Source: an uncultured Acidobacteriota bacterium (GTDB lineage Bacteria > Acidobacteriota > Thermoanaerobaculia > Multivoradales > JAHEKO01). From it: a stretch of DNA of 64,000 bases. The notes below the pieces were generated by a model. It was given only the letters and a program-made list of their open reading frames with translations. It ran no database searches and was not told the DNA's origin. Below are positions 4,871 through 28,702 of the stretch, one piece after another (position 1 is the stretch's first letter; each line of letters starts with the position of its first letter). The translations under genes and the position numbers were made by a program. The DNA is taken from positions 553,794 through 617,793 of the forward strand of contig CAVQNG010000003.1 of the NCBI GenBank assembly GCA_963713825.1, written 5' to 3'.

Positions 4871-6718
4871 ATGAGATTTACCTCGCCCCAAAAAGCTCCG
4901 CCTACCTCGAACCCGAAATTGCTGGCCTGGGTCGAGAGAGTCATCGACCTCTGCAACCCGGGCAAGGTCTGGTGGTGTGATGGATCGACCGAGGAGTATG
5001 ACGAGTTGGCCCAGATCATGACCGAGACTGGAACGGCTCGATGGCTGGACCAGGAGTTGCGTCCCAATTCGCTCTATGTGCGCTCAGATCCGGCCGATGT
5101 GGCCCGCGTCGAAGACCGCACATTCATCTGTTCCCAGCGTCATGAGGATGCTGGACCGACGAACAACTGGGGTGATCCTGCGGAGATGAAGGCCCACCTG
5201 CGAGGCCTCTACGACAGCTGTATGGAAGGCAGGACGATGTTTGTCATTCCCTACTCCATGGGCCCCATCGGCAGCCCCATCGCCAGAATCGGCATCGTCA
5301 TTACCGACTCGCCCTACGTCGTCTGCAACATGCACATCATGGCTCGTGTGGGCACGAAGGTCCTGGAGGCACTCGGCGACGGTGAAGACTTCGTTCGCGG
5401 GATCCACTCGGTGGGATACCCCTTGGACAGCCAGAAGAAGCCCGATCAGCCCTGGCCCTGTAACGCCGACAACAAATACATCTGCCACTTTCCCGAGACC
5501 CGGGAGATCTGGTCCTACGGCTCCGGCTACGGCGGCAACGCTCTGCTCGGCAAGAAGTGCCACGCGCTGCGCATCGCCTCGGTCCAAGCGCGCGATGAAG
5601 GTTGGCTGGCCGAGCACATGCTGATTCTCAAGCTCACCAACCCGCAAGGGCAATCCAAGTTCGTCGCGGCGGCCTTCCCATCAGCCTGCGGCAAGACCAA
5701 TCTCGCGATGATGAATCCCACGCTGCCGGGCTGGAAAGTGGAGACCGTGGGCGACGACATCGCCTGGATGAAGTTCGGTGACGACGGCCGGCTCTACGCC
5801 ATCAATCCCGAGGCCGGCTTCTTCGGTGTAGCACCCGGCACCAGCATGCACTCGAACCCGAATGCCATGCTGTCGCTGGCCAAGAACAGCATCTTCACCA
5901 ACTGCGCCCTGACTCGGGAAGGTGACGTCTATTGGGAGGACATGCTAGACGAGAAGCCTGCCTTCCTCGTCGACTGGCTGCGCCGCCCATGGACATCGGA
6001 AAGCAAGCGGTCGGCCGCCCATCCCAACGCCCGTTTCACCGCTCCGGCCAGTCAGTGCCCAGTCATCGCGGACGAGTGGGAGGATCCGGCCGGAGTGCCG
6101 ATCGACGCCATTCTCTTCGGTGGACGCCGGGCAAAGGTCGTGCCACTGGTGACCGAGGCCTTGGGTTGGGAGCACGGCACCTTCCTGGGATCGATCATGG
6201 CGTCGGAAAAGACAGCCGCCGCCTCGGGCAGAGTTGGCGTCGTACGCCGAGATCCCATGGCCATGCTGCCGTTCTGCGGCTACCACATGGGTGACTACTT
6301 CGCCCACTGGCTCGAAGTCGGAGCCAAAGGGGGTGCCGAAGGCAAGAGTGAATGGGGATCGATGCCGCGGATCTTCTACGTCAACTGGTTCCGCAAGGAT
6401 GAGGACGGCAACTTCCTGTGGCCCGGCTTCGGTGAGAACAGTCGCGTTCTCAAGTGGGTCTTCGAGCGCTGCAACGACGAGGGCGATGTCCAGGAGAGCT
6501 TCATCGGCCTCCATCCGACCGCCGGTGGTCTGGACCTGGAAGGTCTCGACATCTCACAGGAGGACCTCGATCAGCTACTCGCAGTCGATGCCGAAGACTG
6601 GCGGCGAGAGGTCACGCTGCTGCACGACCACTACTTCCAGTTCGGTGATCACCTGCCGAAGGCCCTCGCCGATCAGCTGGCCGAGCTCGAGAGCGTGCTC
6701 AAGGCGATGACGGACTGA
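4871..6718 (+). CDS. pckG: Phosphoenolpyruvate carboxykinase (GTP)
   Basis: 615 aa. The kinase-1a motif [13 protein letters not shown] is present and the architecture is that of GTP-dependent PEPCK. Confidence 0.92.
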
Positions 6719-6797: not shown

Positions 6798-8426
6798 GTG
6801 GACATCGAAGGTAGCAAGGTACTCGTCCTGGGCGGCTATGGCCTGGTGGGGATGGCGGTCTGCCGGGAGTTGTTGGAGCACAAGCCGCGAGAGATCCAGA
6901 TCCACAGCCTGCGGCAGGAAGAATCGGCAGAGGCTCGTGAGCTGCTGACGCCGTTTGCGGAAGGCGTCAAGCTCTCGATCTCGAGTGGCGACATCTTCGG
7001 ACTTGCCGAAGAAGCCTCCAGAATAGAGCGCATCGCGGCTCAGCTGAGCCCCCTTCGCGACTCGGATTGGGGAAGGTTCCTGCTGTACCGGTTGCTGGTC
7101 GATGGCAAGCCGGACATCGTGATCGATTCCGTCAACACCGCGACTGGCATCGCTTACAGGGACGTCTATTCGGCCTCGGCAAAGGTGCTGAAAAGCCTGG
7201 AAGCCGGCAGCTCGCAGTGCGATCAGGTCGAGGATCTGCTCGAAGCCCTCTATGTGCCGCGACTGATCCGCCACATGCAGCTCCTGTATGGAGGCATGAT
7301 CGACGCCGGTACTCGTGCCTATTTCAAGGTGGGGACCAGCGGCACGGGTGGCATGGGCCTCAATGTTCCCTACACCCATTCCGAAGAGAAGCCGAGCCGT
7401 GTTCTGCTCTCCAAGAGCGCCATGGCGGGAGCCCAGTCCATGTTGCTGTTTCTCATGGCCCGCACGCCGGGAGCTCCCATCACCAAGGAGATCAAGCCGG
7501 CGGCCGCTATCGCCTGGAAGAAGATCGACCACGGGCCCATCTACCGTGGACGAAAGCCCATCTACATCATGGAGGCCACCCCCCAGACCCTGGGCGAAAC
7601 CTTCTCAACCAACGATCCGACGGCAGCCAAGGCCACCGAGAGCATTCTCGAGACGGCCTACATCGATACCGGTGAGAACGGCATCTTCAGCGTCGAGGAG
7701 TTCGCGATGCTCACCACGTCTCGACAGATGGAGTTCGTGACGCCCGAAGAGATCGCTCAGTACCTCATCTTCGAGATCGGCGGGGGCAACACGGGGCACG
7801 ACGTCATCAACGCACTGGACAACGCGGTACTGGGTCCCACCTATCGGGCCGGTCTCATGCGCCATTGGGCTCTGGAACGAATGATGGAGTTCGAAGCGCA
7901 GGGCAAAACCAAGAGCGTCGCTTTCGAGATGCTGGGGCCGCCACGCAACACCAAGCTGCTCTTCGAGGCTCACCTCCTCCGAGAGGCGTTCGTCACGATG
8001 ACGGCTGTTCGCGAAGCGACCCCGGACGAAGTTGTCGAGAAGATAGAAACGATGCTTCGGGAAGAGCCGCGGCTTGCCAACGAAGTGGTCTCGGTTGGTA
8101 TTCCCATCCTCTTGTCTTCAGGCGAGATCCTGCGGGGCCAGGAGGTCATCGTGCCAGCCGAGGCGGACCACGAGCCGATCACCCCCGAGAAGCTGGAAGC
8201 CTGGGTGCACGACGGGTGGGTCGACTTGCGGCGCGAGAACTGCGCCAGTTGGATCGATCGGATGCAGCGTATCCACGACGACACGGCGGCCATTCCCAAG
8301 GACGACACCTCGAGTCGCCATTTGCGGAATGTCAGGTTCTGGGACGAGGAGAAGAGGATTCAGCCCGGCAAGATCCTGGGGTGGATTCTCTCAGTCGAGG
8401 AGCACGGCGCCCGCTTCAAGCACTGA
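6798..8426 (+). CDS. NAD(P)-binding Rossmann-fold protein of unknown function (542 aa)
   Basis: The N-terminus KVLVLGGYGLVGMAVCREL is a glycine-rich dinucleotide-binding motif. A conserved GTSGTGGMGLNVP block follows and there is a long C-terminal extension. I do not recognise a family. Confidence 0.6.
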   Translation: MDIEGSKVLVLGGYGLVGMAVCRELLEHKPREIQIHSLRQEESAEARELLTPFAEGVKLSISSGDIFGLAEEASRIERIAAQLSPLRDSDWGRFLLYRLLVDGKPDIVIDSVNTATGIAYRDVYSASAKVLKSLEAGSSQCDQVEDLLEALYVPRLIRHMQLLYGGMIDAGTRAYFKVGTSGTGGMGLNVPYTHSEEKPSRVLLSKSAMAGAQSMLLFLMARTPGAPITKEIKPAAAIAWKKIDHGPIYRGRKPIYIMEATPQTLGETFSTNDPTAAKATESILETAYIDTGENGIFSVEEFAMLTTSRQMEFVTPEEIAQYLIFEIGGGNTGHDVINALDNAVLGPTYRAGLMRHWALERMMEFEAQGKTKSVAFEMLGPPRNTKLLFEAHLLREAFVTMTAVREATPDEVVEKIETMLREEPRLANEVVSVGIPILLSSGEILRGQEVIVPAEADHEPITPEKLEAWVHDGWVDLRRENCASWIDRMQRIHDDTAAIPKDDTSSRHLRNVRFWDEEKRIQPGKILGWILSVEEHGARFKH

Positions 8427-9837: not shown

Positions 9838-9945
9838 GATTCAACCCCCAATGCCCAAGAGCCGGCTGGAGGTACGACGGACGGTCCAACCCCCAAGCCC
9901 CCAAAGAGCGCCCGGCGGTGAGCCGGGCGCCTCCTCCCCCCGGTC
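9838..9945. repeat. GC-rich mosaic hairpin repeat locus
   Basis: Contains tcaacccccaa.gcccaagagccggctggaggtacgacggacggtccaacccccaagcccccaaagagcgcccggcggtgagccgggcgcctc, the same unit family as at 44490, 56790 and 33180. Confidence 0.75.
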
Positions 9946-12900
9946 AGGGATTCACGAGCTTCACCCAATTGCGCATTGCACCCAAACTGCAGCCGAACTT
10001 CTCGTGGCCTTTGCCCAGATGCTGCGCCTCGATGATCTGCTCGCAAGAGCAGCCCCCTGTGTCACCCACCGTGAAGAAATCGGTGGGGCCACTCTGGAGC
10101 CGCCTCTGGTTACCACGGCCACCGGGGGCCGTCGTATCGAACACCCCGTCCTCATCCACCAGCGCGTACCGATTGACTCCCAGACGATCCGTCGGTACCG
10201 ACTCCGGAATCACCGTCGCCGGACAGACATCCACGTCATCGGGCACCCCGTCGTTGTCAGCATCGCTGGCCACGAAGAGAACAAGCCCGTCGTGATCGGA
10301 TGAGCGCAGGGGCGTCGTGTCGTCGTTGATCAGATCGACGAAGGCGTCGGCGTTGCCACGACCGAACTCCAGACCAGCCAGGAAGTCGTCCAACCCTTCA
10401 CTCGTCAGCGCATGGTCGAGGGCTTGACCGTTCCCAGTGAAGATGTAGGAGTAACGTTCCGCCTGATCCAGTTTCGCTGTCTGATTCGTCAGATCGGGCT
10501 CCACCAGATCAGCGCATGGGTTCGTGTCGCAGACGAGATTGTCGGCTGGCTCGAAGTCACCCACGATCTGGCCGACTGCGTCGACGTACCCGTCGGTGAA
10601 TTCAAAAGCGTTGTAGTCACCGATCACCACCAGGTGCACTTCAGGGTTCGCCGACTGCAGGGCCTGGACCTTCTCGGCAATGGACTGGGCCTGTTCGTAG
10701 CGCTTCTGCCTTACCCTCTCGCCACCGCTTGGATCATCGATCCCACCCAGGGAACGATTGTGGACCGTCATGACCGCAATGGAGAACGACCCAAACTCGA
10801 GCTCGAAAGCACCCTCGAGTAGCAAAGGTGGACGATCGTGCAGTAGCGAGCCGTCATAACTCAAGATCTCGTCCTCGCCGAGTTGGGTGATCTGGTCAAT
10901 CGTCACTGTGTCACGCACCATGAAGCCGACATCGATGCCGCCAACGTCGTTGCCCTCGATCAGGATCGGCGTGTAGATCACAGACGAATCCTCGAAAGCG
11001 ATGTCCACGGCCAGGTCCTCGAGGACCTCGATTTTCTCCGCCTCCTGGACAGCCAAGACATCGGGGGCATCGAGAACGTCGAGGATGTAGTCGACAAACT
11101 TGGCCTTCCGTCCGAAGTACTCGGCATTGTCGAAGAAACGCAACATGTTCAAGCTGCCCACTGTAAATTCTCCTGCCGCGCGCGCTCTGACCGGGCGCAA
11201 CACATCCGGCACCGGCCCCACCGACATCATCTTGGGTACAACCTTGTATCGACCGAAGGTGAAGTTCAGGGGGCCATAGCCCGAAATCGCCTGGCCGGCG
11301 AATACGGGGTCGGAGATGCCATCCAGGCCATCCGTGTCGACGTCGAAGACTTCGGGGTTTCCATCCCAGACGGGAAGATCTGATAGGCCCGGAAAGATGA
11401 TGCCGGGCTCTCGGAAGGGCCGCGGATTATCGACAACGAGACTGACCTCGCCGAACCGATTCGTCGGCCCTGAAGCGATGCCATCGAAGCTGACCAGCAT
11501 ACCCTCGAATCGCTCGAGATCCGGAACCGGAAACGGCTGGTCCGAAGGTGTCGTCGCATCGAACGGAGTTACTGTAGGCAGGGGTTCGCCGCCCCCCAGG
11601 ATGTCCACAGTTGGCGAGTCCGTGATCTCCGTCAGTTCGAAGTACTCCTGCACCCGCCCAATGACTCGTACGCGGTCTCCAATAGAGACCATTGGTGGGT
11701 CCACGCCCGTGTAGACGTAGATACCGTCCGAGGTATAGGGATCATCATCGCTGTCTGCGTCAGGTGTCTGCATGTAAAAGCTGCGAAAGGCCACTGCTGT
11801 GACCACGTTTTCGGTTGTCTTGACTTCCATGCCCTCATAGGGCGAGTAGAGGCCATCGCCCTGGATCTCCCAGATCTCCACCGTCGGGGGTCCCGGCGGT
11901 GGCTCGACTCCAGAGGTGACCATGAGGTTCTGAAAGGCGATGGCCTCCGAGCCACCATCGGTATTCGCCGTCAGGATCAGGGTGAGCGTTGAGCCGGTGC
12001 CCGTGAGCGGCGCGTAGAACGGGGCCATGTCATTGTTCAGCAGGTCTCCGTTCACCAGCATCGGGTCACTTAGGGTGACGATCGCACCGCCCTCCATCGT
12101 GTAGTCCTGCGAGGCATCCTCGTCGATCGAGCTCTGAAACGCCGTCTGTACCGCGCCACCGTCGATGCTGTAGCTCCAGTTAAAGAAATCATTCGCCGCC
12201 TCGAAGTCCCCCATCGCTCCCATGTCGATCGACAGCCCGAGATCCGACGCACCATAGATGTCGAAGACCCAGGTCGCAACTACGTCACGACCCGAGGTGT
12301 CGCCATTATTCGTGTCGACAATCCCGAAGAACTCGTCCGTATTCCCTGTCTTGATGATGCCGAGCGTATCCCCCGGGAAGGAGCCCGCAGAGTCGTCCAC
12401 CACCGCAAAAGGAATCGACGCCGATACTCCCCGCTGGAACTTGTTGAAACCATCCCCGGCAGAGGTGAACGGAATTGCCGGGTCGTCCGTAAACGACAAC
12501 AGGTTCTGCGACGCCGAGCTCACCATGTCAAAAGCGATGACTGTCGGTGGCGGTGGTGGCCCGACTCCCGCGGTGATGACGAGGTTCTGAAAGGCGATCG
12601 CCTCCGAGCCACCATCGGTGTTCGCCGTCAGGACCAACGTCAGCTGCGAACCGGTTCCCGAGAGAGCCGTGAAAAACGGGGTCAGGTTATTCGTCAGCAA
12701 CACCCCATTCATCAACATCGGATCACTTAGGGTGACGATCGCACCGCCCTCCATGGTGTAGTCCTGCGAGGCATCCTCGTCGATCGAGCTCTGAAACGCC
12801 GTCACTGCCGGACTGCCGTCGATGCTGTAGCTCCAGTTGAAGAAATCATTCGCCGCCTCGAAGTCCCCCATCGCTCCCATGTCGATCGACAGCCCGAGAT

Positions 12901-13957
12901 CCGACGCTCCACTGATATCGAAGACCCAGGTCGCAATTACGTCACGACCCGAGGTGTCGCCATTATTCGTGTCGACAATCCCGAAGAACTCGTCCGTATT
13001 ACCTGTCTTGATAATGCCCAGCGTATCCCCTGGGAAGGAGCCCGCAGAGTCGTCCACCACCGCAAAAGGAATCGACGCCGATACTCCCCGCTGGAACTTG
13101 TTGAAACCATCCCCGGCAGAGGTGAACGGAATCGCCGGGTCGTCCGTGAACGACAACAGGTTCTGCGACGTCGAGCCCACCATGTCGTAGGCAACCGCCA
13201 TCGGCACAGCAGTACTGACGATGAGGTTCTGGAAGGCGATCGCCTCCGAACCACCATCGGTGTTCGCCGTCAGGACCAACGTCAGCTGCGAACCGGTTCC
13301 CGAGAGAGCCGTGAAAAACGGGGTCAGGTTATTCGTCAGCAACACCCCATTCATCAACATCGGATCACTTAGGGTGACGATCGCACCGCCCTCCATGGTG
13401 TAGTCCTGCGAGGCATCCTCGTCGATCGAGCTCTGAAACGCCGTCACTGCCGGACTGCCGTCGATGCTGTAGCTCCAGTTGAAGAAATCATTCGCCGCCT
13501 CGAAGTCCCCCATCGCTCCCATGTCGATCGACAGCCCGAGATCCGACGCTCCACTGATATCGAAGACCCAGGTCGCAATTACGTCACGACCCGAGGTGTC
13601 GCCATTATTCGTGTCGACAATCCCGAAGAACTCGTCCGTATTACCTGTCTTGATAATGCCCAGCGTATCCCCTGGGAAGGAGCCCGCAGAGTCGTCCACC
13701 ACCGCAAAAGGAATCGACGCCGATACTCCCCGCTGGAACTTGTTGAAACCATCCCCGGCAGAGGTGAACGGAATCGCCGGGTCGTCCGTGAACGACAACA
13801 GGTTCTGCGACGTCGAGCCCACCATGTCGTAGGCAACGACCTGAGCCTCCGACGCGGTCGGTAGAGCCAGCAGTAATGCCATCAAGGCCAAGAACAGAGT
13901 GGAAACCGAAACAAACCTCGAGGTCTTTGCGAGCATCACCATTCTCCTCCCAGGCAT
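9944..13957 (-). CDS. Secreted extracellular nuclease of the endonuclease/exonuclease/phosphatase (EEP) family, COG2374-like, with three tandem copies of a novel N-terminal 214-aa domain
   Basis: A signal peptide is present (MLAKTSRFVSVSTLFLALMALLLALPTASEAQ). Three 214-aa repeats follow, then the IWEIQGDGLYSPYEG ... VVTAV module typical of predicted extracellular nucleases, an EEP catalytic domain (LNMLRFFDN ... VLAVQE ... SDHDGL), and a C-terminal Asp-rich thrombospondin-type-3-like segment (DSDADNDGVPDDVDVC). Confidence 0.8.
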   Translation of the reverse strand: MPGRRMVMLAKTSRFVSVSTLFLALMALLLALPTASEAQVVAYDMVGSTSQNLLSFTDDPAIPFTSAGDGFNKFQRGVSASIPFAVVDDSAGSFPGDTLGIIKTGNTDEFFGIVDTNNGDTSGRDVIATWVFDISGASDLGLSIDMGAMGDFEAANDFFNWSYSIDGSPAVTAFQSSIDEDASQDYTMEGGAIVTLSDPMLMNGVLLTNNLTPFFTALSGTGSQLTLVLTANTDGGSEAIAFQNLIVSTAVPMAVAYDMVGSTSQNLLSFTDDPAIPFTSAGDGFNKFQRGVSASIPFAVVDDSAGSFPGDTLGIIKTGNTDEFFGIVDTNNGDTSGRDVIATWVFDISGASDLGLSIDMGAMGDFEAANDFFNWSYSIDGSPAVTAFQSSIDEDASQDYTMEGGAIVTLSDPMLMNGVLLTNNLTPFFTALSGTGSQLTLVLTANTDGGSEAIAFQNLVITAGVGPPPPPTVIAFDMVSSASQNLLSFTDDPAIPFTSAGDGFNKFQRGVSASIPFAVVDDSAGSFPGDTLGIIKTGNTDEFFGIVDTNNGDTSGRDVVATWVFDIYGASDLGLSIDMGAMGDFEAANDFFNWSYSIDGGAVQTAFQSSIDEDASQDYTMEGGAIVTLSDPMLVNGDLLNNDMAPFYAPLTGTGSTLTLILTANTDGGSEAIAFQNLMVTSGVEPPPGPPTVEIWEIQGDGLYSPYEGMEVKTTENVVTAVAFRSFYMQTPDADSDDDPYTSDGIYVYTGVDPPMVSIGDRVRVIGRVQEYFELTEITDSPTVDILGGGEPLPTVTPFDATTPSDQPFPVPDLERFEGMLVSFDGIASGPTNRFGEVSLVVDNPRPFREPGIIFPGLSDLPVWDGNPEVFDVDTDGLDGISDPVFAGQAISGYGPLNFTFGRYKVVPKMMSVGPVPDVLRPVRARAAGEFTVGSLNMLRFFDNAEYFGRKAKFVDYILDVLDAPDVLAVQEAEKIEVLEDLAVDIAFEDSSVIYTPILIEGNDVGGIDVGFMVRDTVTIDQITQLGEDEILSYDGSLLHDRPPLLLEGAFELEFGSFSIAVMTVHNRSLGGIDDPSGGERVRQKRYEQAQSIAEKVQALQSANPEVHLVVIGDYNAFEFTDGYVDAVGQIVGDFEPADNLVCDTNPCADLVEPDLTNQTAKLDQAERYSYIFTGNGQALDHALTSEGLDDFLAGLEFGRGNADAFVDLINDDTTPLRSSDHDGLVLFVASDADNDGVPDDVDVCPATVIPESVPTDRLGVNRYALVDEDGVFDTTAPGGRGNQRRLQSGPTDFFTVGDTGGCSCEQIIEAQHLGKGHEKFGCSLGAMRNWVKLVNP
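11940..13860. repeat. Three tandem coding repeats of about 642/657 bp inside the nuclease gene; copies two and three are identical over about 595 bp
   Basis: The antisense ORFs at 12837-13190 and 13479-13832 are identical 117-aa strings exactly 642 nt apart. By eye, 12611-13206 equals 13253-13848. The third copy (about 11940-12575) is roughly 90% identical and has a 15-nt longer linker (GVGPPPPPTV in place of STAVPMAV). Confidence 0.9.
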
Positions 13958-14149
13958 GCAAATGGATGGATACCAGCCAGAGACACGCCTCCCGTGTACA
14001 TGTCCTCGTACCGGGTGGCCTCCATGCCTGTCTCCCTCCAGACATTGCTCACCTGCGCTGCGGGTGAGCGGATTCCAGGTGTACTACTAACTTAGCCCAC
14101 CCAGCGAAGGAGTCAAGCAGGTATTGACACTTGTCTATGGGTCTTCCTC

Positions 14150-14340
14150 GCGTCGACACGCCGGCAAGGGAACACTCCCTCCCAATCGTCCAGAGGCGTG
14201 GGTCTTGGGGTTGAAGCGTCCGGTCGTCCCACCCGGCCGGTCCTTGAGGGCTTGAGGTTGAAGAGCCCGTCGTCCCTCCGGCCTACCTTTGAGGCAGTGG
14301 GTCTCCCTCCCGTTTTCCTAAGCCCTTAGGCCCCTACGCC
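14150..14340. repeat. GC-rich mosaic hairpin repeat locus
   Basis: Contains gggtcttggggttgaagcgtccggtcgtcccacccggccggtccttgagggcttgaggttgaag and ends with ctaagcccttaggcccctacgccctta, the gcgtaggggcttagggg motif in reverse orientation. Confidence 0.75.
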
Positions 14341-14615
14341 CTTATTGCCTTCAGCGGTGCCAGAGGTTCGTCCCGGGGCCTCTCGACAAGCGCAGCGCAA
14401 GAGCCATGGCAATGCTAGACAGATCCGGTTCGCAGGTGGCGGCCCGCCCTTGAAGTAGGGGAGGGGCTTGCCCCCTCCCACTGGAGCCCTCAAGGGGCTC
14501 CCCTACATTGCCGACGCCGTCCCCCTGCGAGCCACCCGGACGGATCTCAATTCGAGAACGGCCCCGAGACACTGAATAAGAGAACGGCCGGCAGGGGCGC
14601 CGGCCGCTTGAGGAT
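14340..14615 (+). repeat. Structured element of about 200 nt, copy A (candidate MITE or small-RNA family); a ggccggc-loop-gccggcc hairpin follows at 14583-14605
   Basis: Copy A shares these blocks with the copies at 63230-63440 and 51880-52100 (reverse strand): ggtgccaRaggttcgtccSgg, ctcgacaagcgcagcgcaagagcc, caggtggcggcc, gccgacgccgtccSc, and gaRccaccYgg. Relative to the other two copies it carries an extra hairpin pair, ggggaggggcttgccccctccc plus gagccctcaaggggctc. Confidence 0.7.
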
Positions 14616-14631
14616 TCTCACGTATGTGATG

Positions 14632-14976
14632 TCAGTCGCTGGTGCCGCCCTCGAGGCGGTCGGCCTTGGCGGCCCAGACGAAGTCGCTTTCGGTCAGGCC
14701 GTCGATCTTGTGGGTCCAGATCTTCAAGCCTACCTTGCCCCAGGTCAGGAAGATCTCGGGGTGATGGTTCACCTCTTCCGCCAGCTCCCCGACCCGATTC
14801 GTAAAGGCGAGTGCTTCGACGAAGTTACCGAATCGATACTGCTTCTCGAGGTGATGGCTGTCCACCAATTTCCAGTCGTTCCCGAGCCGTTCGTAGAGAC
14901 CCGCCAGTTCTTCGCCTTCGAGAGGAGGTACGCCTCCCCTGCAAGGTACACAAATGCCATCCGCAAGCTCACTCAT
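14632..14976 (-). CDS. phhB: Pterin-4a-carbinolamine dehydratase (PCD/DCoH)
   Basis: 114 aa. The active-site motif EEVNHHPEI matches the PCD family. Confidence 0.85.
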   Translation of the reverse strand: MSELADGICVPCRGGVPPLEGEELAGLYERLGNDWKLVDSHHLEKQYRFGNFVEALAFTNRVGELAEEVNHHPEIFLTWGKVGLKIWTHKIDGLTESDFVWAAKADRLEGGTSD

Positions 14977-15023: not shown

Positions 15024-15752
15024 CTAGTTGCTGTCACTGTAGTTGACCATGGCCTGCGTCCCGTCGTCGGTAGCAGAGATGATCACCATTACCGTGCGAT
15101 CCTCAGTCTCTTGGGAAGCGATGACCTGGCCACCCTTGCCGTCGGGTCCCGAGTACTCGGTCTTCTGGACGCTCCACTCGTCGTCTTCGAGCTGCTCGAC
15201 GTAGAAAGCCAGCACGTCATCCACCGATTCCGAGGTGGTCAGTTGGAACGATCCACCCACGCCGTCGGGTGTCGACGCCGAGTAGGTGCCTGTCGTCGTG
15301 CCGCCGGGAAAGACCGGCACCCAATCCGGCAGGCTGTCCATGTCGGAGCTGCCGACTCGCATGGTCTCCCCACCATCCGTCGTCACTGTGAACAGACCCT
15401 CTTCGGGGTCGCCCGAGGCACTGAACTCCATCTCTCCCTCGTCCGTCTCGAAGCTCAGCTTGCCCTTTTCGATGTCGGCGTAGTTGACCGTGATGACCTC
15501 GCCACTGTCCTTCTCGCGAATCGTGATCGTGCCCGCATCCCGATCACTGTCCACGAGCTCGAGATCCGGGTTCATCTTGATCAACATCTCGGCCGCCGCC
15601 TCTGGATTCTCCTGAAAGTCCTCAGCGAAGTCACCGACCTTCTTGGCTACGAAGAAGCCGCTCACCGACACGATGATTGCACACACCACCAGCAGGCCAC
15701 CGCAGCCAATCGCCACCCAGGCCCACGGGCTCAGACCTTTCTTTTCGGTCAT
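15024..15752 (-). CDS. Single-pass membrane protein, hypothetical; possible anti-sigma partner of the upstream ECF sigma
   Basis: One N-terminal transmembrane helix (WAWVAIGCGGLLVVCAIIVSVSGFFV) followed by an acidic, Thr/Gly-rich extracytoplasmic domain. The start is placed at MTEKKG. It sits immediately downstream of an ECF sigma gene on the same strand. Confidence 0.55.
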   Translation of the reverse strand: MTEKKGLSPWAWVAIGCGGLLVVCAIIVSVSGFFVAKKVGDFAEDFQENPEAAAEMLIKMNPDLELVDSDRDAGTITIREKDSGEVITVNYADIEKGKLSFETDEGEMEFSASGDPEEGLFTVTTDGGETMRVGSSDMDSLPDWVPVFPGGTTTGTYSASTPDGVGGSFQLTTSESVDDVLAFYVEQLEDDEWSVQKTEYSGPDGKGGQVIASQETEDRTVMVIISATDDGTQAMVNYSDSN

Positions 15753-15889
15753 AGGATCTCCTTTCCGCGCTGTCTCTCGAACAGAGACAAAAACTACCAC
15801 AGCCCCGTCTCGGTCCCGCCTGACGGTGAACTGGGATCGGTGGAACCGCCAGAGGCAACTGGAGCCTTCAACCTGTCGAGGTCAGGCGG

Positions 15890-16765: not shown

Positions 16766-16840
16766 TGGCTCCCCGGGAGGGAGTCGAACCCCCGACCAAT
16801 CGGTTAACAGCCGACCGCTCTACCACTGAGCTACCGAGGA
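16766..16840 (-). tRNA. tRNA-Asn (anticodon GTT)
   Basis: The reverse complement folds as a cloverleaf: acceptor TCCTCGG/CCGGGGA, D-arm GCTC-AGTGGTA-GAGC, anticodon stem GTCGG/CCGAT with loop CTGTTAA, T-loop TTCGACT, and an encoded CCA. Confidence 0.85.
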
Positions 16841-28629: not shown

Positions 28630-28702
28630 GGGTCCATAGCTCAGCGGTTAGAGCATCCGGCTCATAACCGGCAGGTCCCTGGTTCGAATCCAGGTGGGCC
28701 CA
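28630..28702 (+). tRNA. tRNA with a CAU anticodon (elongator Met or Ile2/lysidine; not an initiator)
   Basis: Acceptor GGGTCCA/TGGGCCC, D-arm GCTC-AGCGGTTA-GAGC, anticodon loop CTCATAA, T-loop TTCGAAT, discriminator A. The 3' CCA is not encoded. The paired G1:C72 argues against an initiator tRNA. Confidence 0.8.

Follow-up and report, generated by a model that had tools for sequence, protein, structure and literature searches.

Enzymes that harvest extracellular DNA are known mainly from ExeM-type models. In sediments, extracellular DNA is a major source of phosphorus, nitrogen, and carbon (PMC8289736). ExeM of Shewanella oneidensis combines a lamin-tail domain (LTD), an OB-like region, and an EEP (endonuclease/exonuclease/phosphatase) domain, and it requires Ca2+ plus Mg2+ or Mn2+ (PMC6085458). 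The enzyme stays active without its N-terminal LTD, although the LTD speeds catalysis (PMC6085458). Here, we describe a gene for a related protein that was found in a 64,000-nucleotide stretch of DNA (the window) from an uncultured Acidobacteriota bacterium of the class Thermoanaerobaculia (contig CAVQNG010000003.1). It is located on the minus strand between positions 9944 and 13957. With a probability of about 0.65, we read its product as a secreted nuclease of the ExeM/NucH type that carries three non-catalytic binding modules, with the array of modules evolving in concert.

In the longest open reading frame (ORF) of the locus, the nuclease gene comprises 1,337 codons (9944 to 13957, minus strand; 1,337 aa), and residue numbers given below refer to this reading. 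The true start is probably the ATG at position 13936 (Met8) rather than the codon at 13957, which would yield a product of 1,330 aa. This start was favored because of the spacing of a GGAGGAG Shine-Dalgarno sequence, the overlap with the stop codon of a short upstream ORF, and the length of a database protein (P0121; 1,330 aa) that is identical to the window product and encoded on a contig of 1.9 Mb. A Sec-type signal peptide (13844 to 13936, minus strand; aa 8 to 38) ends in ...LPTASEA, followed by Q, and the N-termini of orthologues are equivalent. It contains the sole strongly hydrophobic 19-mer of the whole protein (aa 14 to 34; Kyte-Doolittle value, 2.3). No membrane anchor, sorting signal, or hydrophobic helix was detected at the C-terminus by hydrophobicity scan, and a PEP-CTERM signal, which consists of a PEP motif, a transmembrane helix, and a basic cluster, was absent by Pfam and hydrophobicity. 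The nearest relatives with names originated from metagenome-assembled genomes of Thermoanaerobaculia and showed 62 to 68% identity.

The catalytic part begins with an OB-like or YhcR-like beta module (11168 to 11884, minus strand; aa 692 to 930), which opens with EIWEIQGDG and was all-beta in the AlphaFold (AF2) model. It is followed by the EEP catalytic domain (10274 to 11167, minus strand; aa 931 to 1228), assigned by PF19580, by its EEP fold in Foldseek, and by its motif residues. The C-terminal 650 residues matched Pfam Exo_endo_phos_3, with PF19580 scoring 25.7 bits (E = 7e-6), just below the cutoff of 27. Positions 2 to 110 (of 546) of the ExeM_NucH_DNase model NF033681 corresponded to aa 716 to 826 in the best stretch (E = 3e-32), and the family score of 112.1 bits fell short of the curated cutoff of 300. 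The only solved structure with sequence similarity was that of the nuclease SpnA (PDB 9SF8/9SF9; E = 6.5e-9), which matched aa 693 to 973 and 1151 to 1192; residues 2 to 305 of 9sf8 aligned to the OB-like region. An AlphaFold model of the catalytic part, computed with 34 orthologues (predicted local distance difference test [pLDDT], 80), displayed an all-beta N-terminal part and then an EEP fold. Foldseek matched the EEP part to TDP2, CNOT6L, DNase I, and a Bacteroides EEP protein (E values of 1e-11 to 1e-9; TM-scores on the target [TMt] of 0.57 to 0.78).

Residues N937, E972, H1066, D1114/N1116, D1181, and S1220-D1221-H1222 were invariant or nearly so in the 34 orthologues, and we take them to fulfill the catalytic and metal-binding roles of the corresponding positions in known EEP motifs. 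Sequence and model together identify the protein as a secreted nuclease of the EEP superfamily, predicted to be active on DNA. The first-pass annotation of this DNA had called it a secreted nuclease of the COG2374 ("predicted extracellular nuclease") type. That call is borne out by the signal peptide, the IWEIQGDG module, the EEP motifs, the sequence matches to ExeM/NucH and SpnA, and the EEP fold found by Foldseek.

The protein terminates in a conserved domain (9947 to 10273, minus strand; aa 1229 to 1337) with four cysteines, an Asp-rich motif resembling thrombospondin type 3 (TSP3) repeats, and a helical end. TSP_3 (PF02412) gave a single match at aa 1232 to 1248 (18.6 bits against a cutoff of 25). 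The motif DADNDGVPDDVDVCP is followed by ...GCSCEQII...GHEKFGCS..., and the helical end was confidently predicted. There were 114 domain-level matches to this region, and most orthologues covered its full 113 residues. No Pfam or NCBIfam family was found above threshold for it, although it is kept in more than 100 relatives. The C-terminal domain is a second unnamed module of the window nuclease.

The first unnamed module is present in three tandem copies, which start at aa 40, 254, and 473 and are spaced 642 and 657 nt from start to start. Unit 1 (13211 to 13840, minus strand; aa 40 to 249) scored 298.9 bits with a hidden Markov model (HMM) of the domain and was modeled by AF2 with a pLDDT of 95. 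Unit 2 (12569 to 13198, minus strand; aa 254 to 463) was delimited by sequence comparison and the domain HMM. Unit 3 (11912 to 12541, minus strand; aa 473 to 682) shares 571 to 577 of 642 nt (89 to 90%) with units 1 and 2 and 186 of 214 aa with unit 1. This agrees with the third copy of about 90% identity and PPPPP-containing linker reported in the first-pass annotation; the linker in question lies between units 2 and 3 (linker 2, AGVGPPPPP; 12542 to 12568, minus strand) and differs from the one between units 1 and 2 (linker 1, STAVPMA; about 13199 to 13210, minus strand). The domain HMM did not detect a further copy of the module elsewhere in the window.

Units 1 and 2 share an exact identity tract of 587 nt, at 13251 to 13837 in unit 1 and 12609 to 13195 in unit 2, and with two mismatches it stretches to 615 nt (12581 to 13195). 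An exact repeat of this length is impossible by chance. An identity of about 595 bp had been noted before (12611 to 13206 and 13253 to 13848). This figure was essentially right, except that the upper end had been placed 11 nt too far; the overshoot, where the end of the signal peptide and linker 1 begin, contains seven mismatches.

Gene conversion accounts for the identity between units 1 and 2 better than a fresh duplication does, since two different linkers border the tract and a relative with three copies has both linker types. This relative (protein P0373, locus L080) is encoded on an independent 229-kb contig, is 85 to 90% identical to the window, and contains counterparts of both STAVPMA and AGVGPPPPP. 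We also weighed a very recent tandem duplication but gave it less credence, as the linkers differ and both recur in the relative. Accordingly, of the two origins offered by the first-pass annotation, very recent duplication or ongoing gene conversion, the second is the one we retain.

A segment-wise comparison of DNA showed that unit 2 of L080 is a hybrid, its N-terminal part being 96 to 98% like its own unit 3 and its C-terminal part 93 to 99% like unit 1. A gene with one unit was the reciprocal hybrid, and two genes with two units were other, different hybrids. In the same comparison, paralogous units of the window were 94% identical where orthologous units were 85 to 88% identical. A single cluster formed at 90% identity included a one-unit protein of 901 aa, several two-unit proteins of 1,117 to 1,120 aa, and a three-unit protein of 1,335 aa. 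Hybrid units in genes with one, two, and three units are the expected products of unequal crossing-over. Copy-to-copy identity across the family ranged from 48 to 100%. Copies that are 97 to 100% identical at the protein level were found in 13 other orthologues from different lineages (P0124, P0125, P0129, P0132, P0139, P0147, P0183, P0218, P0220, P0222, P0223, P0224, and P0230), which indicates that homogenization is recurrent and not peculiar to the window genome.

Relatives with one to three copies and hybrid units are in line with the copy-number variation that had been anticipated from the repeat, and population-level variation among close relatives is suggested by these sequences. It was graded no higher because all of the lower-copy variants derive from contigs of k127/k141 short-read assemblies, and a collapsed de Bruijn graph of a three-copy gene would yield exactly such paths. 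Another relative, P0369 (NCBI MGB9357554.1), is a fragment on a 1,728-bp contig with 99% identity to the window protein. Over 576 aa it is identical save for a patch of four residues in unit 3, which carries the version of units 1 and 2. With this patch, the differing linkers, and the higher identity of paralogous than of orthologous units, gene conversion in the window has stronger backing than copy-number variation in the population. Its label, Acidimicrobiia, is probably that of a mis-binned short contig, given that other named close relatives belong to Thermoanaerobaculia or Gammaproteobacteria and that PEP-CTERM relatives of the module come from diderm bacteria.

For the repeated unit of the window protein, no match was obtained in Pfam, NCBIfam, or PDB sequences, and none of 45 aligned relatives (0/45) had a Pfam match to the module itself. 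Neither a carbohydrate-binding module (CBM) family profile at an E value of ≤1 nor a Pfam MAM match was detected in the window protein or the 45 relatives. Profile-HMM searching of the unit for a lamin-tail or CBM family, envisaged earlier as the way to challenge its novelty, thus found no match. A lamin-tail identity was rejected as well, as comparison by hhalign with 22 LTDs taken from related proteins gave a probability of 0.2%.

The AF2 model of the unit, built from a 45-sequence alignment, reached a pLDDT of 95 and a predicted TM-score (pTM) of 0.91 and consisted of 16 strands without helices. When this model was compared with the PDB by Foldseek, the matches included MAM domains, ephrin-receptor ligand-binding domains, CBM4, CBM16, and CBM22, a hyaluronan-binding module, Cry toxin domain III, and phage tailspike lectin domains, with E values of 1e-5 to 1e-3, TM-scores of 0.38 to 0.46 on the query, and 7 to 15% identity. 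The best of them was the MAM domain 8a28 (E = 1.6e-5; TM-score on the query [TMq], 0.39), and the MAM domains 5l73 and 8yt7 were also listed. Phage tail-fibre and CenC-like modules were returned from BFVD with scores similar to those of the PDB matches. Among the top 50 structural matches, no jelly-roll domain of a glycoside hydrolase or lyase was identifiable by description.

The predicted model has the jelly-roll beta-sandwich fold of CBM4/9/16/22. It places the unit in the jelly-roll, galactose-binding-like class of binding modules and outside every named family, and the structural search on one unit yielded fold-level neighbors only. The module is thus a new sequence family inside a known structural class and not a new fold. 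Its description as unrecognized and novel holds in the sense that it is unnamed in Pfam, NCBIfam, and PDB sequences; it is, however, common in databases, and its fold class is known. The unit is strongly acidic (pI 4.05), with 27 D/E against 4 K/R in 210 aa, 10% aromatic residues, and no cysteine, which sets it apart from MAM domains with their conserved cysteines. Invariant positions are located in D/N-rich motifs (FFGxxDTxNxDN, DMGAMGDFE, and GGSEA), which, judging from the motifs, are likely structural Ca2+ sites.

A word-indexed search with the unit revealed 125 relatives. An exhaustive HMMER scan of 1.84 billion proteins, each representing a cluster at 50% identity, increased this to 523 representatives at an E value of ≤1e-3 and 417 at ≤1e-10. 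Among the best 120 full-length relatives of the nuclease, 92 contained two copies, 17 contained one, and 7 contained three. Two copies are therefore the normal number in the nuclease subfamily, which the window protein exceeds by one; comparison of repeat numbers in orthologues, which had been put forward as a check, resulted in one to three copies. Proteins with three units were also present in more distant lineages (P0132, P0184, and P0213 to P0217). The module is what orthologous nucleases, numbering in the hundreds, usually carry at the N-terminus. Members of the subfamily were labeled Thermoanaerobaculia, Woeseiaceae, other Gammaproteobacteria, Anaerolineales, and Rhodobacteraceae.

Many other relatives are proteins of about 260 aa, composed of a signal peptide, one module, and a PEP-CTERM anchor, and the PEP-CTERM signal was present in 26 of the 45 aligned relatives of the module. 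The other multi-domain architectures (n = 44) contained LTD in 17 cases and, as EEP families, PF03372 in 10 and PF19580 in 5. Further partners were RTX repeats and a 5'-nucleotidase with choice-of-anchor-I and CHRD domains, and glycoside hydrolase domains were nearly absent. In a JGI metagenome (locus L087), the gene of the two-unit nuclease orthologue P0129 (6001 to 9411) adjoins a thymidine kinase gene (4902 to 5540), a weak hint at a link to nucleoside salvage.

Based on these results, we propose the following mode of action. The protein of about 140 kDa would be exported by the Sec pathway and act as an extracellular nuclease, with the OB-like module binding nucleic acid, the EEP domain performing two-metal catalysis, and the four-Cys domain closing the C-terminus. 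The three tandem, very acidic beta-jelly-roll modules of 210 residues at the N-terminus are putative non-catalytic ligand-binding units, probably stabilized by Ca2+. Their tandem arrangement may increase avidity and thereby keep the nuclease attached to a polymeric target near the cell, and in relatives the lone module would be displayed on the cell surface through its PEP-CTERM anchor. Homologous recombination between units, by gene conversion and unequal crossing-over, would have made units 1 and 2 identical recently and would also yield hybrid units and the variants with one to three copies in close relatives. We infer a non-catalytic binding module from the tandem repetition, the fold class, the lack of enzyme-like structural neighbors, and the autonomous display through PEP-CTERM.

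As to the ligand, binding to extracellular DNA or to a matrix that contains it, by aromatic stacking or by way of bridging divalent cations, was ranked first, because the domain partners point to nucleic-acid and phosphoester metabolism whereas the charge opposes plain electrostatic binding of DNA. We hold this assignment tentatively, at somewhat less than even odds. A substrate-binding module for DNA or polysaccharide had been proposed in the first-pass annotation. The binding part of this proposal is supported by the fold class, which is one of binding modules; direct DNA binding is disfavored by the charge, although the partners are mostly nucleases.

Several observations weigh against the reading of the protein as a nuclease with three DNA-directed binding modules and a recombining array. 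The extreme acidity of the unit, with only four K/R in 210 aa, counts against simple electrostatic DNA binding. The TM-scores of the structural matches are weak, so that these matches establish the fold class only. The genes surrounding those of four stand-alone PEP-CTERM homologues showed no theme related to nucleases, phosphate, or exopolysaccharide. Finally, short-read assembly of a three-unit gene could just as well have produced the hybrid units described above.

An extracellular or cell-envelope glycan is nearly as likely a ligand as DNA, though likewise below even odds. The module would then be a CBM that anchors the nuclease and the PEP-CTERM proteins to exopolysaccharide or envelope glycans, with no contact to DNA via the units, and to this version we give the same odds as to a glycan ligand. 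Its nearest folds include CBM4, CBM16, CBM22, the hyaluronan-binding module, and phage tailspike lectin domains, and it has a very acidic surface and an aromatic content of 10%. PEP-CTERM proteins are linked to exopolysaccharide-producing diderm bacteria, and this association was likewise counted in favor of glycan binding. However, the multi-domain partners of the module are overwhelmingly nucleases, LTD, and nucleotidases and not glycoside hydrolases or lyases, and none of the CBM families resembles it at the profile level.

MAM domains mediate oligomerization, and MAM domains (8a28, plus 5l73 and 8yt7) head the structural matches of the unit. The module could thus be a homotypic, MAM-like domain through which the nuclease docks on a PEP-CTERM-anchored single-module protein of the same cell, comparable to a cohesin-dockerin tether. 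The distribution of anchors fits this idea, with the nuclease lacking one and the stand-alone forms being anchored. We nonetheless regard it as improbable: no stand-alone copy of the module was found in the 64-kb window, the proteins of a candidate same-genome pair (P0043 and P0129) lie on two different contigs that merely have the same length of 34,897, and the TM-scores are low.

Still less probable is that faulty assembly produced the third copy or the perfect identity and that the gene really contains two units, as do most of its orthologues. Mis-assembly classically arises at exact repeats such as this one of 587 nt, two units were counted in 92 of 120 relatives, and the independent contig of P0369 ends inside the repeat. 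On the other hand, repeats are collapsed by assemblers far more frequently than expanded. The reading frame is kept through the array, each of the two linkers is distinct and unique, and the window protein is encoded on a 1.9-Mb contig. The relative at 85 to 90% identity likewise has three units and both linker types on its independent 229-kb contig, and three units occur in the more distant lineages as well. The least likely alternative, a bifunctional protein in which the module has an enzymatic activity of its own (such as that of a glycanase or lyase of the jelly-roll type with catalytic E114 and E199), can draw on the existence of jelly-roll hydrolases and lyases, on these two invariant glutamates and many invariant aspartates, and on stand-alone forms that imply autonomous function, but the PDB matches of the unit are binding or lectin-type modules, the jelly-roll part of the matched enzymes (phage tailspikes, GH101, arabinanase, and xylanase) is not known as catalytic, and tandem duplication is unusual for catalytic domains and typical for binding modules.

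The reading of the protein as an ExeM/NucH-type nuclease with binding modules implies that a large, mostly uncultured nuclease subfamily carries an accessory module that is absent from every domain library. Hundreds of examples of the module are already public under uninformative names, and concerted evolution of tandem domains as such is already known. Naming and characterizing the module would improve the annotation of several hundred protein clusters and could show how cells keep nucleases, or DNA, at their surface. Its recurrent homogenization would offer a clean natural case of concerted evolution within one gene. As a practical warning, the copy number of this nuclease family is unreliable in short-read assemblies. 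A more far-reaching and rather unlikely version sees in the module the founder of a new receptor family for extracellular DNA, the members of which would capture DNA via bound Ca2+ or Mg2+ despite their acidic surface. If so, the lone PEP-CTERM form would be a cell-surface DNA-capture protein in sediment bacteria, one to three fused copies would feed substrate to ExeM-like nucleases, 5'-nucleotidases, and phytase-like enzymes, and copy-number changes by recombination would tune avidity.

The nuclease gene is preceded by a conserved leader, which was found at 13936 to 14116 (minus strand) of the window and at 2823 to 3001 of L080, 1152 to 1330 of L001, 948 to 1126 of L082, and 128 to 306 of L081. 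It contains a 29-codon upstream ORF (13936 to 14025, minus strand), the stop codon of which overlaps the ATG of the nuclease by 1 nt; length and overlap are kept in the five loci. The stop is TGA or TAA, and the peptide is conserved mainly at its C-terminal end. A promoter-like sequence, TTGACT-N16-TAAGTT (14089 to 14116, minus strand), is conserved in the five loci as well and was not listed by a simple promoter scan. The leader can also form the hairpin GCTCACC...GGTGAGC and, just upstream of the 29-codon ORF, the hairpin TGTCT-GGAGGG-AGACA, which encloses a Shine-Dalgarno sequence (GGAGGG); the two hairpins, too, are common to the five loci. No Rfam match was found in the conserved leader. 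The arrangement suggests translational coupling or leader-peptide control.

Upstream of the leader, the variable intergenic part contains an imperfect 45-nt tandem repeat (14204 to 14294; two copies, 78% matches), and much of this stretch is missing from the orthologous spacer of L080. A strong terminator-like hairpin with 11 pairs, 8 of them GC (14583 to 14608, minus strand), directly follows the Pterin_4a gene (14632 to 14976) and is kept in L080, suggesting that the nuclease is transcribed on its own. The five orthologous loci are syntenic, with genes for an extracytoplasmic function (ECF) sigma factor, a small membrane protein, Pterin_4a, the nuclease, and a radical-SAM protein. Two syntenic neighbors in the window, at 6798 to 8426 (plus strand; 542 aa) and 15024 to 15800 (minus strand; 258 aa), had no Pfam match at an E value of ≤1e-5, and the 258-aa protein has an N-terminal hydrophobic segment. 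Their L080 counterparts matched PF27054 (Beta_methylindole_red_C) and, weakly, PF27226 (AF_1845). Rfam identified only two tRNA genes in the window (16769 to 16840, minus strand, and 28630 to 28702, plus strand). The surrounding genes are core chromosomal ones (rpoD, dnaG, mutS2, PEPCK, and a gene for a PAS-GGDEF-EAL protein), so the nuclease is located in no obvious mobile element.

Compared with described systems, the array resembles repeats of bacterial surface proteins that undergo concerted evolution, in that copies within a gene are more alike than orthologous ones, hybrids and copy-number variation occur, and the process recurs independently. It differs in comprising only two or three long (642-nt) units, with population-level variation confounded by short-read assembly. 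The predicted model of the unit shares an all-beta sandwich and general topology with MAM, ephrin-receptor, and CBM4/16/22 domains, and like CBMs the unit is found in tandem copies joined to a hydrolase. In contrast to them, it is larger (210 aa and 16 strands) and has no profile match, and its partners are nucleases and not glycoside hydrolases. The module takes the same N-terminal accessory position as the LTD of ExeM-type nucleases and co-occurs with it (17 of 44 architectures), whereas the LTD has another fold class and a length of about 110 aa, and the profile-profile comparison of the two was null.

The alignment with SpnA (Streptococcus pyogenes nuclease A) spans the OB-like region together with both ends of the EEP domain. 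However, this Gram-positive virulence factor, with 562 residues resolved, lacks the jelly-roll module and the four-Cys tail. With ExeM, NucH, and Xds, the window nuclease has in common the Sec signal, an EEP domain with conserved metal and phosphate motifs that is immediately preceded by an OB-like "EIQG" module, an N-terminal non-catalytic accessory domain, and the predicted degradation of extracellular DNA near the cell. It scores 112 bits against the family cutoff of 300, and LTD (PF00932) was not matched in it at an E value of ≤1. In place of the GlyGly-CTERM of ExeM, or of any membrane anchor, it has the conserved four-Cys C-terminal domain. Since it fails the NF033681 cutoff and is without LTD and GlyGly-CTERM, it would represent a related subfamily with a different accessory module, in which three unnamed jelly-roll copies occupy the position that the LTD holds in ExeM.

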